A stretch of 64,000 bases of DNA from a virus. Below are positions 11,730 to 47,145 of this stretch, in pieces. The position numbers were made by a program, and so were the translations under genes. A model generated the notes under the pieces. It saw nothing but the letters and a program-made list of their open reading frames with translations. It did not search any database and had not been told where the DNA came from. The stretch lies in IMG/VR virus record IMGVR_UViG_3300049445_000358; one strand, 5' to 3'. Positions within the stretch are counted from its first letter, which is position 1. Each line of letters begins with the position of its first letter.

Positions 11730-14597
11730 GTGGCACAAGAAGGTCGTGGGGGAGCGCCCTCTGGGTTTATAGGCAGGTCGACACAGTCGGACCTGCACCG
11801 CATGACGACTACCGAGAATGAGAGGCTTAATGGTGCTAACGGTAAGGTAGAAGGGCAAGGTCCGACGTCAGGCCACATCGAGCTTGAAGCCGAGTCGAGT
11901 CTAATAGTCGTAAGAGATCTAAAGAAGTCGGGGTTAGAACCTAGGGACATCCAGGCTAGGATACTGGGGTCGCCAGAAAGGGCTGCTTGTAGAGTTCCGA
12001 TGAAGGCGGAAGGGTACGTCATACCTTACTTCGACATCTCGGGAGCTCCCCTGACATTCTACCGGTCTCGCATCTTGAACGCCGACTTCTCGACAAACGG
12101 CGTCAAATACAAGCAACCCGCGAAGACACCCAATCACATCTACTTCCCAAGGAACTTTCGGGCTACGTTGCAGCGCCATGTGCGATCTCCAGGTCCGAAA
12201 GTCTTGATCATCACAGAAGGTGAGAAGAAGTCCGCCTGTGCAGATAAGTTCGGCTATCCTACAGTAGCCCTCAGCGGTGTTGACTCTTGGCGATCACGTA
12301 CTATTGTTCTACCTGAAGACACCGAGTTCTACAGTCAAACCGACGATGACAGTGGAGGCGGAGGCAGGCGTAAAGGTCCGGTGAGAGCAAGACTCCCCTC
12401 AACTGATACGTCAGTACCTGAACTGGTGACATTGGCCAGAGGGTTTGGAGACCTCGTCGATACTATTACCCAGCATAAGCTCCACCCGATCATCGTGTAC
12501 GATTCTGATCGTGTTGGGACCGTCAAGGCCGAGGTTCAACGGGCGGCAACCATGCTAGCCTATGAGCTGGTGTTCTTGGGCATCCATGCGACTATGATCA
12601 AGCAGGTTGTCCTCCCGTCATTGATCCAAGAGCCAATACCGGAGGGAGCGGACGAGGACTCGGAGGAGTTCAAGACTGGCCTCGACGACTACATCATGGA
12701 CAGAGGACCGGAACAACTCCAGCGATTGATCGAACGGGCACTGCAAGACCCAAAGGCGTTCCCTCGGCATCCCAACCCGAAAGGGTTCATAAGTACCCAG
12801 CTCCAAGGGAAGATGAGCCGGAAGTCGATGCAGCAGGTTGCGTCGATGATCTTGACAGAGTTAGACGCCGGAGGTATGCGCCTCATCGACACGATCACCA
12901 ACATCCCATACTACTTCGATCGTGAGACAGCGATCCTCATACCTGCTAAACTCCAGGACAACAAGACCGTCCCGTTTCACGAGCAGAAGTTCGGGCAGCT
13001 ACTGTATAAGAAGTATGGCATCTCTGCGAACGATGCCAGAGTACTAACGTGGTTGGCATCACAATTCACTGGTGAGGAACCCCTCTCAGAAGTGACACCC
13101 CGTAGGGTACTGTGCCTCATTACCGATAAGGAGGATGCCCTTAATCCCACCGGTATTGCCTATCAAGCATCGGACTCTCAGTACTTCGCAATCAGCCCCG
13201 ACCCGAAGAACCCAATCGAAGTACTGACTAACGGGGCTAAGGGGATCCTATTTGAACAAGACCAAGTTGAACCTCTAGACATCGAACAAGTCCTCGAGCA
13301 CTTCGACCACCAACTCTCGGAGAGCATTCATGCTGGGAAGCTAAGCGGATGGTGGATGGAGGTCATCAACCAGTCGACCATCGGCATGGGAGCACCCGAA
13401 CAACCAGTCAATGACCAACCGAACTCTGATGGGTTGATCGACCTCTCAGAACCAGAACTCCCGCCTGATCAGAGAGCAGTCGTCACCGAGACAGGTAAGG
13501 AGATGCGAGCATATGCGGCTCTTCTCACGTACATTAGTCCTTTTCTTTTGCGCTGGCGCGGCCTCCAACTCCCTATTGAACTCACCGTTGGTCCGGCTGG
13601 TTCTGGCAAGTCAAGCTTGTACAGCCTCAGGCTTCAAGTTCTCACAGGAAGGCCTAAACTGCGCAACATCCCTACGGACATCAGGGACTGGCAAGCTTCT
13701 CTGGCCCACTCAGGCGGTCTACATGTGGTGGACAACGTCCACTTCATGAACCGGGAGCTCAAGCAGCGCATCTCGGACGAGCTATGTCGAGTGACCACTG
13801 AGCCCAACCCGCACATCGAAATGCGAAAGTACTTCACGAACACTGACGAGCTGAGGTTTCCTGTAAGAGCGGCATTTGCGTTCACAGCCATCCAGCCTCC
13901 ATTCCTCAATGAGGACTTGATCCAAAGGTCGGTCACTTTCAAGACAGCCTTTGTCGAGCGAGAGCCTGAAGGGGATTGGGTCACGGACACCCTGGAGGAA
14001 AGAGGCGGGAGGGAAGCTTGGGTCGCACACCACCTGGTGTTCCTGCATCTCTTCCTGAAACAAGTGTGGGAACCAGACTTCCGAACGCAACACCGGCTAG
14101 CCCATCTCGAACAAGCTCTGACAGTAGCATCCCGCGTGCTCGACTTAGACAACTTATCGCAAGAGGTCTTCGCGGACTACCACGAACATATGTCGGTGAT
14201 AGGCCAGGTCGATCCTACCAAGGACGTAACACCAGCGCCTATTGAGATCCAACAGTTAGTACCTCCATCGCCACCCCCGGGTCAAGTATTCGGTCAGACG
14301 CTCCTGCGAAACCAAGCAACACAGATTGCAGCAACGGACTGGGTGCTCCAGGGGATCAGAGACTTCTTAGCCCACAGATTCCCCAATCTCCAGGGCGAGT
14401 CAGAACGGTTTGGTGCGGGAGACGTTTCTGATTGGTGCATGGGTCAGGATGAGTACCAGGACAATGAGATCCTCACTAACTCCCGCAAGCTTGGGAAGTA
14501 CATGTCTGATAGGATCTCGACCTTGAGTATGGTCCTAAATATCAGGTCAGCTGGTTCGTTCCAGAACAAACAGACCTATCGCCAACACAGCAGGTGA
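11730..14597 (+). CDS. Toprim (DUF3854-like) primase fused to a P-loop helicase
   Basis: Toprim ITEGEKKS, LSGVDSW, YDSD, GLDDY; Walker A GPAGSGKS, Walker B VVDN; start uncertain. Confidence 0.8.
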   Translation: MAQEGRGGAPSGFIGRSTQSDLHRMTTTENERLNGANGKVEGQGPTSGHIELEAESSLIVVRDLKKSGLEPRDIQARILGSPERAACRVPMKAEGYVIPYFDISGAPLTFYRSRILNADFSTNGVKYKQPAKTPNHIYFPRNFRATLQRHVRSPGPKVLIITEGEKKSACADKFGYPTVALSGVDSWRSRTIVLPEDTEFYSQTDDDSGGGGRRKGPVRARLPSTDTSVPELVTLARGFGDLVDTITQHKLHPIIVYDSDRVGTVKAEVQRAATMLAYELVFLGIHATMIKQVVLPSLIQEPIPEGADEDSEEFKTGLDDYIMDRGPEQLQRLIERALQDPKAFPRHPNPKGFISTQLQGKMSRKSMQQVASMILTELDAGGMRLIDTITNIPYYFDRETAILIPAKLQDNKTVPFHEQKFGQLLYKKYGISANDARVLTWLASQFTGEEPLSEVTPRRVLCLITDKEDALNPTGIAYQASDSQYFAISPDPKNPIEVLTNGAKGILFEQDQVEPLDIEQVLEHFDHQLSESIHAGKLSGWWMEVINQSTIGMGAPEQPVNDQPNSDGLIDLSEPELPPDQRAVVTETGKEMRAYAALLTYISPFLLRWRGLQLPIELTVGPAGSGKSSLYSLRLQVLTGRPKLRNIPTDIRDWQASLAHSGGLHVVDNVHFMNRELKQRISDELCRVTTEPNPHIEMRKYFTNTDELRFPVRAAFAFTAIQPPFLNEDLIQRSVTFKTAFVEREPEGDWVTDTLEERGGREAWVAHHLVFLHLFLKQVWEPDFRTQHRLAHLEQALTVASRVLDLDNLSQEVFADYHEHMSVIGQVDPTKDVTPAPIEIQQLVPPSPPPGQVFGQTLLRNQATQIAATDWVLQGIRDFLAHRFPNLQGESERFGAGDVSDWCMGQDEYQDNEILTNSRKLGKYMSDRISTLSMVLNIRSAGSFQNKQTYRQHSR

Positions 14598-16808: not shown

Positions 16809-17338
16809 TGCCAGCCAAACCAGATCTGTGTGTCGACTTCGACGGTGTCATCCACTCCTACACCTCAGGATGGCATGGATCACACATCGTAGCTGACCCT
16901 CCTGTCCCAGGAGTCTTCCAATGGCTCTATAGGGCTCAACAGTACTGGAGGGTGAATATCTATTCCTCACGCTCAAAAGAAGCGGCAGGCATTCAAGCGA
17001 TGAAGCTCTACTGTAAGGAACATGCGACCAAAGAGCTACAAACACCATCTGCGATCAAGGACTTCCTGCAGAACCTACAATGGCCGACGCAGAAGCCTGC
17101 AGCCAACATGACGATCGATGATCGAGCATTCTGCTTCCAAGGCAACTGGGACGATCCGGCTCTCGACCCTCGAGTGCTTCTGCAGTTCAAACCGTGGAAC
17201 AAGCGCGGCCCGGAGACTCGTACCCTTCCGTTTCACATTCAACACTTGATCGACGCCATCAACATTGACCAGAAGGACCTGGCTATCCACTTGGAGGCCT
17301 CCATCCTCAAGGAATTGTACGGACCTGTGACAAGGTGA
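16805..17338 (+). CDS. HAD-superfamily phosphatase
   Basis: Motif I DFDGV, motif II YSSR, KP...IDDR. Confidence 0.8.
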   Translation: MMPAKPDLCVDFDGVIHSYTSGWHGSHIVADPPVPGVFQWLYRAQQYWRVNIYSSRSKEAAGIQAMKLYCKEHATKELQTPSAIKDFLQNLQWPTQKPAANMTIDDRAFCFQGNWDDPALDPRVLLQFKPWNKRGPETRTLPFHIQHLIDAINIDQKDLAIHLEASILKELYGPVTR

Positions 17339-17355
17339 CCCGACCAATTTCCACG

Positions 17356-17423
17356 GACCATAATTTTACCCTAGAGGAACCGCAAAATAACTCTTGCGTG
17401 CCCCTTAGGATCTATTGTATAAT
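17356..17423 (+). promoter_or_regulatory. Promoter P3 with upstream box
   Basis: Box GACCATAATTTTACCCTAG (17356-74); AAAATAACTCTTG shared with P1; TTGCGT-18-TATAAT. Confidence 0.8.
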
Positions 17424-17483
17424 CTATTTGTAAGTTGGAGCTTACAAGCTTCAATGGGTACTAGATCAAGGAGAGGACAAGTT

Positions 17484-18029
17484 ATGGCACAAGGACAACA
17501 GGATCGCCCGCAGGAAGCCATTCGCGAACCGGGTGCAGGGGCGTCGACCACGACCACATCGCCGGCGGCTTTGGCGACGGGATCGATGGCGAATACGGGA
17601 ACGGTTGCCCCGACGACTGCGGCTCCGACCGACGGCAAGCCGGCGCCGACCGAAGAGCAGCTGCGTGCGGCTCGCGAGGTCGTTGCTCGGGCGAAGCAGG
17701 CGGGCGTCAAGCTGACGGCGTCGGGTGGGGGTCAGGCCCGCATCATGCTGCCGAACGGCGAATCGCGCGCTGCCTACATCAAGCGCCGGTGGGCCGAGAA
17801 GGCGGAACGCGCCACGATCGTGAAGGAGATCCAGAGCGCCGGCCCGCCGCACGACAAGTGCACCTACCAGATCGTCTTCGCCGCGACCAAGGGCCTCCCC
17901 GGCGGTCCCGACAAGGACAAGCCGACGGGCGATGACGGCAAGACCTATTCGCTGCAGCCGCCGAAGCCTGGCGCGTCGCCGGCAGCCTCGCAGACGAACC
18001 AGGGTGCATCGGCAGCCGCCGCGGAGTAA
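17484..18029 (+). CDS. Probably abundant DNA-binding or nucleoid protein with low-complexity A/T/P tails
   Basis: AAGGAG RBS, GC3-rich codons, core SRAAYIKRRW...TYQIVFAAT. Confidence 0.65.
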   Translation: MAQGQQDRPQEAIREPGAGASTTTTSPAALATGSMANTGTVAPTTAAPTDGKPAPTEEQLRAAREVVARAKQAGVKLTASGGGQARIMLPNGESRAAYIKRRWAEKAERATIVKEIQSAGPPHDKCTYQIVFAATKGLPGGPDKDKPTGDDGKTYSLQPPKPGASPAASQTNQGASAAAAE

Positions 18030-18529
18030 CGAATCACTGGCCAGTGAGCTGAAGTACGGGCCGCTATGGGTTGGAGGCTAGCGCCTCCTTCCCTGCTCTC
18101 GTACGTTGGTCGGAAACAAACCATCGGCAAGGCCAGCGACCCGTACTCAGCGACGAGTCCAACGTTGTCAAGGTCCGACGTCATGAACAGGATGCACGCC
18201 CCGGTACGCAGCCTGCAAGCATCGCCGAGGGCTCCTTTGATGGAGGTAGGCGAGGAAGCGGTAGGCTGTGGGCATAAGTCCTAGGCAAACCCGGGGTATT
18301 GGAGGACGGCGGTTTGCGTGTGCTCCCTAGGTTGACCATGCTACGACCGTTCCCGAGGCTTTGGGGGTTGTGCCTGACGAACAGATGACGCTGCGTGAAA
18401 CAACCTCCACTGTTTTAGTAGGGACGGCTTCGGAGGGTGTGCCGTAAACACCTTCCACTCTGACGTGATGTGCCGCTATCGAGCTAGCGACATGTTACTC
18501 CTCAAAACTTGGCCCGGTAGCTGTAACTT
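18030..18529 (+). ncRNA. Candidate structured non-coding RNA (~500 nt)
   Basis: No convincing CDS; several nested stems and an H-type pseudoknot (see findings). Confidence 0.55.
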
Positions 18530-19087
18530 ATGGACTCGCCCCAGGCGCTAACACTTGCTGAGTTAGTCGGCGAAGGAGCGGTTTCGCAGCTGCCGGGCTC
18601 TTCTTTTTTCGAGTTCTACCAAAAGGTAAAGGGGCGACCACCAGTCGAAACCCTACCGTACGAGATTATAGGCTTGGACCCTGGAGAGACCACAGGCGTC
18701 AGTGTTTGGACCAGGACAGGCTCGGAATTCCAGGTGCAGTCATTCCAGATCAACACCTCCATCATCGAATGGGGCGTTGACAAGTTTAACATCCTACTCC
18801 AACGTTCTCCAGGCAAGTGTGTAGTCATAGAGAACTACCGCGTGTATAGTTGGAAGGCCAAGATACATAGCTGGCAGGAGCTCCTCACTCCCCGGTTGAT
18901 CGGGGTGGCTGAGACCTTCTGCCGTCTGGGTTCGATCCCGATCGTCAAGCAGATGGCACAACAAGGGAAGTCGTTCGCAACTGACGACAAGCTAGAACAA
19001 TGGGGCCTCTACCTTAAGGGGAGACCTCATGCCATGGATGCTACACGTCACGTCTGTCAGCTACTACTCTTCGGAGAATGGAAGTAA
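18530..19087 (+). CDS. ruvC: RuvC-like Holliday junction resolvase
   Basis: IIGLDPGETTG, VVIENY, HAMDA. Confidence 0.8.
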   Translation: MDSPQALTLAELVGEGAVSQLPGSSFFEFYQKVKGRPPVETLPYEIIGLDPGETTGVSVWTRTGSEFQVQSFQINTSIIEWGVDKFNILLQRSPGKCVVIENYRVYSWKAKIHSWQELLTPRLIGVAETFCRLGSIPIVKQMAQQGKSFATDDKLEQWGLYLKGRPHAMDATRHVCQLLLFGEWK

Positions 19088-19830
19088 TGATGCAAAGGAG
19101 CAAGTCAGCAATCGTAGCTTTGCTCCTAGCCACAACGGCTTGCGGAGGATCACCCTTGGCTCCGCTTCAGCCGGGAAAGGTCAGGATCTCCGACCCTATG
19201 CAGTACCTGGCTCAATCGCGAGCACCCGACGGTAACGTAGCAACTCCCCTACACGACTACGACCCGATAGCTTATCGCAGGTTCGACTTCGGGCACTCTC
19301 AAGCGTCAGACAGCTTCCTGACTGGCCCGACTTCGGCGATCACAACCTGGAGCTACTCTCCCTGGAATGAGTTCACCGACGCCAACGGTGATGGTGGGGA
19401 GACCTATGAGCTCCAGGGCGATAAGGTGTTGATCACCAGCACGAAGCATATGGGCATCCCTACGACAGCCATCTCATGGGTCGCCCTACGTACCGACACC
19501 GTAGATTGCTCGCAGGGTTGGACGACCTACTCTCCACTCGAGCGAGGGTGTAGAGTAGCAGTCACATACCCGAACATCGGACCAGTAGACACGATCGTCA
19601 GTGAGCATCTCAACCCAGTTGAACAGTTTGTTGAACGCATATTCCTGGGACGAGGCTGGGGCAGACTAGCATGGCAGACGTTCCGAGCCTCGGGACAGCC
19701 AGTCAAGGACCGTTGCCCCGACTTCGGATGGAGCACCTATGCGAGCTGGGCTCTAACCGATTGTCGGTATGCCCTCAATGTCGAGCAGGCATCAGGCAAT
19801 CTAACAGGAAAGAATCTCTGGCACCCCTAG
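19078..19830 (+). CDS. Lipoprotein
   Basis: Basic N-terminus, hydrophobic core and lipobox LATTA-C; true start probably 19087 or 19090. Confidence 0.7.
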   Translation: MEVMMQRSKSAIVALLLATTACGGSPLAPLQPGKVRISDPMQYLAQSRAPDGNVATPLHDYDPIAYRRFDFGHSQASDSFLTGPTSAITTWSYSPWNEFTDANGDGGETYELQGDKVLITSTKHMGIPTTAISWVALRTDTVDCSQGWTTYSPLERGCRVAVTYPNIGPVDTIVSEHLNPVEQFVERIFLGRGWGRLAWQTFRASGQPVKDRCPDFGWSTYASWALTDCRYALNVEQASGNLTGKNLWHP

Positions 19831-19853
19831 TAAGCGAGCGGGATAACCTAACC

Positions 19854-20423
19854 ATGCAGTCCGATAATGAGAGAGCTTGGGAACGGAGTAAGCGAGAGGG
19901 CGTCAACCCGAAAGACCTGATCGGGGTCACCAAAGTCCCCTTCCAAGTCGTTCCTTGGCCGGCTGTCGCTTACATGTCGTTCTGCATGTATGATGGAGGA
20001 GTCAAGTACGCTCCCGTCAACTGGCGTGACATCGCCGTCAAGCTAAGCATCTACGCCGAAGCTGGGCTAGGCCACTTCGCTTCGATCCTCGACGGCAAGG
20101 ACTATGATCCCGTCACTGCATTACACCATGCGGGCTATGCTATGTCGTGCGGAGCGATCATCCTTGATGCCTTGATCACCGACAGCCTCATCGACGACCG
20201 CTTTGCAGTGCGTCGCCAACGTCCAGGGGCTCTGGCATCACGCGACATCGTCGGCTACCCAGAAGGCAGGCCAGGTGCCATCAAGGAGATGATCGCCAAG
20301 CCTCTCCGTCTCGATCCTATCGGTTCTATACCGGTACCTCCGCCTCAACCGTCAGCAGATCCCGAACCGGTACCTGCACCTGAGAGTCTGGTCCCAGACG
20401 GAGGTCGGGAGGAGCCGTTCTAA
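19854..20423 (+). CDS. DUF5664-type dATP/dGTP pyrophosphohydrolase domain protein
   Basis: NPKDLIGVTK...GGVKYAPVNWR...DPVTALHHAGYA...DDR. Confidence 0.75.
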   Translation: MQSDNERAWERSKREGVNPKDLIGVTKVPFQVVPWPAVAYMSFCMYDGGVKYAPVNWRDIAVKLSIYAEAGLGHFASILDGKDYDPVTALHHAGYAMSCGAIILDALITDSLIDDRFAVRRQRPGALASRDIVGYPEGRPGAIKEMIAKPLRLDPIGSIPVPPPQPSADPEPVPAPESLVPDGGREEPF

Positions 20424-46676: not shown

Positions 46677-46913
46677 ATGGACGACGATCTGGCTTCAGAG
46701 TTCTTTAAGGTATCGGCTGCTTGGCATGGTCGTAGTGACGAGCGTATGACCACGAACCAAGCTATCACGCGCCTGAACCATGTTGCCTCGCAGGCGGAAA
46801 ACCCAGGACTTGCTGGGAGGGCCCGCTTATTACTGGACCAGATCGTTTACGGAAGAAATCATCGACCAGCAAGGATTATGACCAATGGCCGCACCGATCC
46901 ACGTCGTTACTAG
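46677..46913 (+). CDS. Hypothetical protein
   Basis: GAGG RBS. Confidence 0.6.
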   Translation: MDDDLASEFFKVSAAWHGRSDERMTTNQAITRLNHVASQAENPGLAGRARLLLDQIVYGRNHRPARIMTNGRTDPRRY

Positions 46914-47133
46914 CGAAGTTTGTGGGCGCTGCAAGTTCTCAAGAGCCAATCCGGCGCCTTCTCCCGGACTTGAACTGATCTGCAAACGGATGCCTCCACA
47001 CGCCTCGGCTACCCTGATGGGTCGTCAGCCTGATGGTCAGCCTCTCTTCATGTACACTTCATACTACGCCTGTGTAGGCGAGCACGAGGAAGGCTGTGGT
47101 GAATGGAAGCCGAAGATCACCATCACCAACTGA
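46885..47133 (+). CDS. Cys-containing hypothetical protein
   Basis: CGRCKF...CKRMPP...CGEWK; last + strand gene. Confidence 0.6.
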   Translation: MAAPIHVVTSEVCGRCKFSRANPAPSPGLELICKRMPPHASATLMGRQPDGQPLFMYTSYYACVGEHEEGCGEWKPKITITN

Positions 47134-47145
47134 CCGTCGCCGATA

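Follow-up and report, generated by a model that had tools for sequence, protein, structure and literature searches.

A structured non-coding element, probably a + strand RNA, between two replication-module genes of a soil or rhizosphere phage

The window analysed here is a 64,000-nucleotide (nt) stretch of DNA, part of an 80,218-base-pair (bp) IMG/VR virus record (IMGVR_UViG_3300049445_000358) from a siphovirus-like phage whose habitat is soil or rhizosphere. Between two of its + strand genes, one that we call P1 and one for a RuvC-like protein, lie 500 nt without a conserved reading frame. Comparison with homologues in two related phages indicates that this element is probably an evolutionarily maintained structured RNA of the + strand. 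It matches no Rfam family, and we tentatively read it as a cis-acting leader of the genes behind it.

The element and its neighbours

The locus has the following layout (labels such as L003 denote loci in other phage contigs).

17394-17423, + strand: promoter P3 (TTGCGT, 18-nt spacer, TATAAT, read from sequence), the nearest promoter 5′ of the element's unit
17484-18029, + strand: P1 gene, 181 amino acids (aa), an open reading frame (ORF) with translation; the same ATG is called in L172 and L173
18030-18529, + strand: structured non-coding element, no conserved frame; homologues at L003:48-788 and L008:1-291
18530-19087, + strand: RuvC-like gene (Holliday-junction resolvase-like), 185 aa, the first gene 3′ of the element

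No other ORF-free gap between co-directional genes of the window is as large as the element. The first-pass annotation, made from the sequence alone, had set it in an otherwise gap-free genome; the gap is indeed largely exceptional, but three AT-richer promoter islands (145-177 nt) and one 396-nt convergent gap are also ORF-free, these being the remaining coding-strand stretches of at least 120 nt. The 396-nt gap, the second largest (46750-47145; guanine-cytosine (GC) content 0.56), marks the meeting point of the rightward replication block and the leftward structural block.

ORFs of 72, 68, 52 and 43 aa are spread over the two strands of the element. Six-frame comparison with L003 and L008 found no conserved reading frame, only similarity patches of at most 24 aa that are scattered over all frames of the two strands. 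In L003 a stop codon ends the 72-aa ORF (18066-18284) after 16 codons, and the insertions and deletions that separate the window from L003 measure 1, 2, 25 and ~290 nt. The description of the element as non-coding is thereby upheld, and none of its short ORFs shows coding-type conservation.

The window sequence alone does not establish structure beyond chance. Its minimum free energy of -201.5 kcal/mol corresponds to z -1.76 on the + strand and -1.74 on the - strand, and equally good folds arise in 5 of 100 shuffles. The element's GC content is 0.58-0.61, above the genome mean. Since GC is 58-60% and the single-sequence z is marginal, a list of stems is by itself no evidence. The earlier word 'structured' therefore draws nothing from the single-sequence fold, which is near that of shuffles, but it is borne out by the consensus fold with L003 described below.

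Homologues and comparative support for structure

Homologues were sought in the contigs of the closest relatives of the RuvC-like protein and by scans of IMG/VR, JGI metagenomes and GTDB genomes. A homologous element was found in two metagenomic phage contigs only, L003 and L008. The L003 copy is 61-65% identical to the window over aligned blocks (69-76% in BLAST segments) and has ~290 nt extra after window position 18410; the L008 copy is partial, its contig stopping within the element. A covariance model of the 5′ domain (R1), run on 34 sources, matched only the window, L003, L008 and, marginally, L030 (E 0.05), there outside the slot between the P1 and RuvC-like genes. Megablast and blastn searches of 17000-20000 and 17415-19087 against 50,697 phage records gave no matches. 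An IMG/VR motif scan with TCCTAGGNAAASCNGGG gave 16 exact matches whose surroundings were dissimilar and which were judged chance, and one with TACTCCT-N0-3-AAACTTGG gave 117, none beside a RuvC or P1 homologue. Querying IMG/VR with P1 or the RuvC-like protein singly found no matches, and a GTDB genome scan with a RuvC alignment found distant matches only, which indicate no host. Copies of the same phage in other samples are identical in sequence, and the region is identical across contigs of four runs, which thus show no microdiversity.

The window-L003 alignment was folded with RNAalifold and compared with 200 column shuffles in which the pattern of gaps and identities is preserved. The z-scores were as follows.

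Whole element: + strand -10.2, - strand -5.7
5′ 384 columns: + strand -7.5, - strand -5.5
3′ 119 columns: + strand -5.2, - strand -1.7
Control, adjoining RuvC coding region of the same two genomes (67% identity): + strand -0.8, - strand -1.6

As a guard against circularity, helices were predicted from the window alone and then scored in L003. They contain 22 double-compensated pairs there, compared with 4-8 in controls whose 3′ partner is shifted by 1-3 columns. Of the Watson-Crick pairs that the folds of the two strands share, 43 are unchanged and 11 doubly compensated, while 14 have become wobble-type and three true mismatches. L008, whose pairing was read directly from its sequence because the MAFFT alignment misplaced its 5′ strand, covaries independently in helices H2, H5 and H7 (below). 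Over these three sequences, then, compensatory changes keep most of the major helices in L003 and L008, and the element is kept in both position and secondary structure in these related phages. From the sequences, the compensatory changes point to ongoing selection for pairing.

Helices and motifs

The predicted features of the element, 5′ to 3′, are these.

18034-18047, + strand: H1, hairpin directly 3′ of the P1 stop, 5-bp stem, self-complementary GGCC loop
18054-18146, + strand: 5′ domain, H2 around hairpins 18068-18093 and 18107-18123
18054-65 with 18135-46, + strand: H2, long-range helix
18149-18173, + strand: 25-nt segment missing in L003, holding palindrome CAACGTTG (18160-67)
18198-18297, + strand: central multi-helix domain, H5 around H6, inner hairpins 18224-51 and junction 18271-18290
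18198-204 with 18291-97, + strand: H5, one compensatory pair
18207-12 with 18265-70, + strand: H6, three compensatory pairs
18316-18341, + strand: hairpin (18316-23/18334-41), four compensatory pairs (window GCGUGC/GCAUGC, L003 CCUGUC/GGCAGG)
18363-18371 with 18400-18408, + strand: H7, 9 bp, 28-nt loop
18424-18456, + strand: predicted H-type pseudoknot, S1 18424-28/18441-45 and S2 18432-40/18448-56
18465-18498, + strand: H9, 3′ hairpin of 8 + 4 bp, conserved UCGAGC loop, three G-U pairs
18494-18512, + strand: tail motif GUUACUCCUCAAAACUUGG, 18 nt 5′ of the RuvC-like start codon, single copy in the window

About half of the stems listed in the first-pass annotation hold in the homologues, and several give way to better-supported pairings. 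The 14-bp palindrome, now H1, is present and covaries: it reads TACCGGCCGGTA in L003 (TACC-GGCC-GGTA) and TTCCTGGCCAGGAA in L178 (TTCCT-GGCC-AGGAA), so that the stem sequence varies while palindromy and the GGCC loop are kept. The long-range stem, noted at 18048-60/18141-52, has its core at 18054-18065/18135-18146; the window's GGG/CCC becomes GAG/CUC in both L003 and L008, and in L008 the helix grows to 11 perfect pairs. Enclosed by it, the hairpin GGAGGC-UAGC-GCCUCC lies at 18073-18088 and is likewise supported by covariation, with two compensatory pairs in this 5′-domain hairpin; the companion at 18107-18123 carries a conserved UGGUCG...ACCA. Covariation also backs the CUCC/GGAG stem, and part, though only part, of UCGCC/GGCGA. 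The stems GAUGC/GCAUC, GCAAACC/GGUUUGC and GGCAU/AUGCU are unpaired in L003, and H5, H6 and the hairpin 18316-23/18334-41 are their covarying replacements. CCUAGG/CCUAGG has no support from covariation either: window and L003 do not differ in it, and L008 lacks the second copy.

In the central domain the L008 strands of H5 (GUCCGG and CCGGGC) pair with an additional G-C swap. The junction 18271-18290 is conserved in sequence, with the motif UCCUAGG-N-AAA-SC-N-GGG common to the window, L003 and L008. The 9-bp stem H7, another of the original list, has two compensatory pairs and keeps a third-pair G-U in the window and L003, whose loops differ at two positions; its equivalent in L008 is a 9-bp helix (GGCGGUUGA/UCAACCGCC) with a short and unrelated loop.

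The 3′ module begins with S1 and S2, which form a probable H-type pseudoknot, as judged from sequence: S2 has two compensatory pairs and one one-sided change that keeps pairing, and S1 is identical in the window and L003. H9 has two compensatory and four one-sided kept changes, the one-sided ones all holding in L003 by wobble pairing, and none of its pairs is broken. Variants of the tail motif occupy the same position in L003, L170, L171, L178, L180 and L182. L180 and L182 have a GGAG 6-7 nt before the AUG with which the CUCC(U) of this motif can pair, in a hairpin that would sequester the Shine-Dalgarno (SD) sequence. A long-range closing helix, GGAGUAAC (18023-30) with GUUACUCC (18494-501), was considered and set aside, as CAUGUUAC pairs locally in the covarying H9.

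Two short pieces of the element recur in the genome, each with a chance expectation below 0.1. The 16-nt ACGTTGTCAAGGTCCG (18162-77), mostly within the 25 nt absent from L003, has an exact inverted copy at genome position 248-263, near the left end. Overlapping it, the 15-nt CAAGGTCCGACGTCA (18169-83) has a direct copy at 11856-11870, inside the ORF of a DUF3854 protein (11730-14597).

Strand

Sequence comparison favours the + strand for the fold because its overall z is larger, the 3′ block is structured on that strand only (-5.2 versus -1.7) and H9, with its three G-U pairs, can pair only there. The covarying helices, nested and each reaching over 60-100 nt, include a probable pseudoknot, an architecture that fits a folded RNA better than cruciform DNA.

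The slot across relatives

The order P1 then RuvC-like is kept in ~30 distinct loci. In most relatives the two genes are 40-130 nt apart and a terminator-like hairpin with U-run abuts the start codon (as in L012, L015, L024 and L106), which is why we take the junction to be an expression boundary.

Other relatives fill the slot differently. In L013 (IMGVR_UViG_3300045413_000166, 1259-1621) a permuted two-piece transfer-messenger RNA (tmRNA) of beta-proteobacterial type stands between the P1 homologue and the RuvC-like gene; it is found by Rfam (RF04321, 113 bits) and by ARAGORN, has the tag ANDSVYAVAA, and overlaps the RuvC-like start region with its 3′ end. L154 (2537-2931) has a tRNA-Pro(UGG) after ~240 nt of folded sequence with 4 x CCCTTA; the motif GGTGGGATGAAGC occurs in this slot and also in L170 and L171. 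Small ORFs, read from the sequences, occupy the slot in L025, L026, L041, L102 and L119, and in L174 (1231-1968) a gene for a 245-aa Hint_2-domain protein directly follows the P1 homologue. Inserts of 250-540 nt with long stems are found in L004, L092, L170/L171, L176, L178, L180 and L182, with no detectable similarity to the interior of the window element. The L170/L171 insert has some conserved structure (z -2.8 and -3.6), which is weak and leaves the strand undecided. Tandem repeats occur in L092 (335-620; 4 x GTGCAGGAC and CACCAA repeats) and L008 (60-90; 3 x GATTGA).

The ends occur in more relatives than the interior does. Immediately 3′ of the P1 stop, the window, L003, L178, L180, L176 and L170 have a hairpin with RCUGA behind it; at the other end, a 3′ hairpin followed by (G)UUACUCCU...AAACUUGG close to the AUG is found in the window, L003, L170, L171, L178, L180 and L182.

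Contigs of many independent relatives, including 27-kb ones, end in the slot or within ~800 nt 5′ of the RuvC-like gene (L003, L008-L011, L092, L170, L171 and L180-L182). Population heterogeneity may account for this, or the P1 gene, GC-rich and of low complexity, may assemble poorly.

Flanking genes and transcription

P1 is a compositional island, with GC of 66-70% against ~53% around it. Its protein has tails rich in P, A and T and a conserved core (...GERRVDYIKRR..GEIAKELGVPYQIVFAATK), which is probably of helix-turn-helix (HTH) type. Matches of the family to HTH_7, HTH_23 and CENP-B_N are sub-threshold and in distant homologues, and Atlas structure matches to HTH proteins are weak; the sub-threshold matches suggest that P1 is a small DNA-binding protein, widespread in the phage group. 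The RuvC-like protein matches phrog_1981 (3e-15) and phrog_1770, Holliday junction resolvase (7.7e-5), and has 147 homologues in the protein collection. An in-frame TAA lies 3 nt 5′ of 18530, which is therefore the earliest possible start. No SD sequence precedes this start codon in the window or in L003.

The + strand of the window carries a replication and nucleotide-metabolism module whose proteins include the following.

DUF3854 protein, ORF 11730-14597, possibly a primase-helicase
Dcd-like protein
MazZ-like dNTP pyrophosphohydrolase
Ligase
SNF2 helicase
PD-(D/E)XK nuclease
Class II ribonucleotide reductase
UDG-PolA fusion

P3 is left unflagged by a consensus promoter scan, its -35 hexamer having three of six matches. 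The same scan found no promoter-like site inside the element, and on the - strand the TTGACA complementary to 18165-18170 has no acceptable -10 to make a sigma-70-type promoter. No terminator-like site was found in 17000-19500 on either strand. As the element lies downstream of P3 with no such site in this interval, read-through transcription from P3 is the simplest expectation.

Contigs of 99,229-99,230 bp from three separate runs (X2, X9 and X16; soil and rhizosphere) hold the region with 0 differences. The 80,218-bp record, although rated 100% complete, may fall short of the full genome, or the longer contigs may be terminally redundant. In soils the phage attains contig depths of 20-46x.

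Screening against known RNA classes

Rfam 15 at gathering thresholds gave no match in the whole 64-kb window, and at E up to 10 it gave only noise for 17300-19200 and likewise for L003, L008, L092, L170 and L171. No family is matched, then, whether tmRNA, RNase P, intron, ROOL, GOLLD or HEARO; the models of ROOL, GOLLD, HEARO, OLE and raiA all remain below gathering threshold. ARAGORN found no tRNA or tmRNA in the window, L003 or L008. With both tools silent, the first-pass failure to recognise a tRNA, tmRNA, RNase P or group I core is confirmed; the same tools detect the L013 tmRNA easily.

A degenerate tmRNA was examined at greater length and rejected. The loop of H7 contains the frame ...CGA ACA GAU GAC GCU GCG UGA (18378-18398), which encodes RTDDAA-stop and has one synonymous C/U change in L003. 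This frame is six codons long, sits inside an acceptor-like hairpin loop and is absent in L008. The 3′ flank of H7 is ACUG or GUUC, not ACCA, and the third pair is C-G in L008, so that both the G-U and the tag-like loop are lost there. T-arm and CCA are absent in the element, Rfam tmRNA models are silent at E up to 10 or 5, and a local alignment of the element to the L013 tmRNA region is at background (z -0.6).

RNase P RNA was rejected since no model scores at E up to 10 and the covarying partner of the GGGG strand lies upstream (18198-204), not downstream as CR-V does in the P4 helix; the junction motif AGG-N-AAAG-C-N-GGGGCU, which we take to resemble CR-I of RNase P, is a lead only, unsupported by the models. 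A group I or II intron is at odds with the flanks, two genes with their own stop and start that abut in many relatives, and no Rfam intron model matches. PreQ1 and other riboswitches, considered for the H-type pseudoknot of the 3′ module, were dropped because no riboswitch model scores, and an intrinsic terminator because of the empty terminator scan. An omegaRNA of an IscB/IsrB-type nuclease, suggested by the RuvC-fold gene that comes next, was rejected as well: the RuvC-like protein belongs to a 185-aa resolvase-like family that is mostly without upstream RNA, and HEARO gives no score.

Proposed function and alternatives

The explanation that we prefer, tentatively, is that the element is a cis-acting intercistronic leader, a structured + strand RNA co-transcribed from P3. 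It is favoured because the element lacks its own promoter and terminator, shares the strand of the two genes beside it, reaches to 18 nt from the start codon and sits at an expression boundary. We infer transcription, action in cis and control of translation by the 3′ module, in the following way. A transcript from P3 would run through P1, the element and the RuvC-like gene into the replication and recombination genes behind. The 5′ hairpins would cap the P1 message, and the branched middle would be a folded domain under selection. The 3′ module, with its pseudoknot, + strand-only hairpin and CU-rich tail, would set the expression of the SD-less RuvC-like gene and those following, at the level either of translation initiation or of processing and stability. 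Of the first-pass proposal, an undescribed large phage non-coding RNA, the non-coding character, the conserved structure and the lack of an Rfam family stand; an independent gene is harder to uphold, the element lacking its own promoter and terminator and abutting the RuvC-like start with its 3′ end.

Several points weigh against a + strand leader. Its ~12 helices over 500 nt, with near-invariant loops, far exceed the needs of known translational operators, and neither the window nor L003 has an SD for the tail motif to sequester. The tmRNA of L013, a stable RNA gene in the same slot, fits a trans-acting RNA equally. The covariation comes from two homologues, one of them partial, so that independent events are few, and a strand-neutral count of one-sided transitions separates the strands weakly (G.T 9 versus A.C 5; in the reverse direction, 2 versus 3). 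No RNA run is listed for the phage, against 24 DNA runs (soil and rhizosphere).

A stable, trans-acting non-coding RNA of a new class, processed out of the P3 transcript and targeting the host or the phage's own programme, for instance as decoy, scaffold or self-assembling RNA, is possible, if on the whole unlikely. Size and complexity would be natural in such a molecule. So would the nearly invariant 28-nt loop and a junction motif kept in three lineages at ~65% overall identity, and the slot does host stable RNAs that need processing from a longer transcript (the tmRNA of L013 and the tRNA-Pro of L154). By analogy with ROOL, GOLLD and OLE, in which kissing contacts use self-complementary loops (PMC12286853), the GGCC loop and the UCGA within UCGAGC may be of the kissing-contact type. 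Yet the element comes without its own promoter, terminator or recognisable processing signal, no RNA run is listed, and the family is tiny; its interior is swapped for unrelated sequence in sister phages, which fits a local function better.

A bolder form of this proposal, which we regard as rather doubtful, would make the element the first representative of a new class of phage RNAs, large and modular, of 250-750 nt, processed from an operon transcript and acting in trans. Its members would have a 5′ module (hairpin and RCUGA), a 3′ module (hairpin and CUCCU..AAACUUGG) and a fast-evolving folded interior, and would occupy a 'stable-RNA slot' that tmRNA or tRNA fills in sister phages. If so, the class could be translation-related, an anti-defence decoy, or a self-assembling RNA joined by its palindromic GGCC and UCGA loops. 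On present sequences we would place the element as a new RNA family, of three sequences, within the known kind 'structured phage RNA'.

That the element works as DNA, whether as an origin, a signal for single-strand priming or a binding site for a protein, perhaps the HTH-like P1, is improbable. It does lie in the replication module beside a probable DNA-binding protein, contains the perfect palindromes 18034-47 and CAACGTTG, conserves pairing on the - strand too (z -5.7), has 15-16-nt pieces that recur elsewhere in the genome, and has relatives with iteron-like repeats in the slot (L092, L008 and L154, above). The window element itself, however, has no tandem repeats or iterons and no AT-rich segment, and the cumulative GC skew does not turn here (20.5 kb of the genome). 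It thus shows none of the usual marks of a replication origin (iterons, AT-rich unwinding segment, skew switch), though origins that lack them are conceivable. Nested long-range helices with a pseudoknot, and a 3′ block structured on the + strand only, are unlike cruciforms, and the half-sites of the palindrome vary while the P1 segment ...SAGPPHDKCTYQIVF... stays constant: it is identical in the window and L177, though the L177 palindrome differs. The first-pass alternative of an origin is on these grounds weakly disfavoured. As to the packaging element also suggested there, the scan of window proteins identified no terminase, and the slot is part of the replication module; no direct test for a packaging site was made.

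A decaying remnant of a former tmRNA or mobile insert, functionless at present and with ancestral stems, is more improbable still. The slot is a hotspot with varied occupants (tmRNA, tRNA, small ORFs and a Hint-domain gene) and the RTDDAA-stop of the H7 loop is vaguely like a tmRNA tag, but the compensatory changes indicate ongoing selection, and the element has no similarity to the L013 tmRNA and no T-arm, CCA or tmRNA match in ARAGORN or Rfam, its tag-like loop being absent in L008. Hardly credible is that it encodes one or more small proteins, since the four ORFs on its two strands are not conserved and the longest is cut short in L003.

Comparison with known systems

Large structured RNAs whose function is not known are rare, and phages carry several of the most familiar, such as ROOL and GOLLD. 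The element adds a candidate of ~500 nt that is backed by sequence comparison and matches no catalogued family; the soil phage lineage it comes from probably has 7-deazaguanine-modified DNA. A single syntenic junction that holds a terminator, a tRNA, a permuted tmRNA or unrelated folded RNAs also offers a natural experiment on the acquisition and exchange of RNA genes and long leaders among phages.

Like ROOL and GOLLD (PMC12286853, PMC5737381), the element is several hundred nt long and phage-encoded, with many helices, a predicted pseudoknot and no known function. Those RNAs are often found near tRNA islands; the slot of the element holds tRNA or tmRNA in sister phages. In GOLLD the 3′ part is conserved and the 5′ part variable; comparably, both ends of the element occur in more relatives than its interior. 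The element differs from both in having no Rfam match, a family of three sequences and no promoter or terminator of its own, and in abutting a start codon.

Two-piece tmRNAs borne by phages are known, for example in phage Melnitz (PMC9004378). The element resembles these and the permuted tmRNA of L013, with which it shares slot and strand, in its pseudoknot-type fold, a helix with a third-pair G-U and a short frame ending in Ala-Ala-stop, at 500 nt compared with 360. It is unlike them in lacking T-arm, CCA and any ARAGORN or Rfam match, and in that neither the G-U nor the tag-like loop is found in L008.

Leader RNAs that set expression include the T4 gene 32 leader pseudoknot, the T7 RNase III sites, HK022 put and the Bacillus EAR antitermination element. 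As with these, the element lies between co-directional genes of an operon, on the same strand, and places a pseudoknot and hairpin before a start codon; in some of its relatives the CUCC can sequester the SD. It differs in that no protein partner, cleavage site or bypassed terminator was identified in the window phage. Known elements of this kind measure 40-130 nt, against 500 nt and ~12 helices here, so that even if it is only a leader, it would be unusually large for a bacterial virus.

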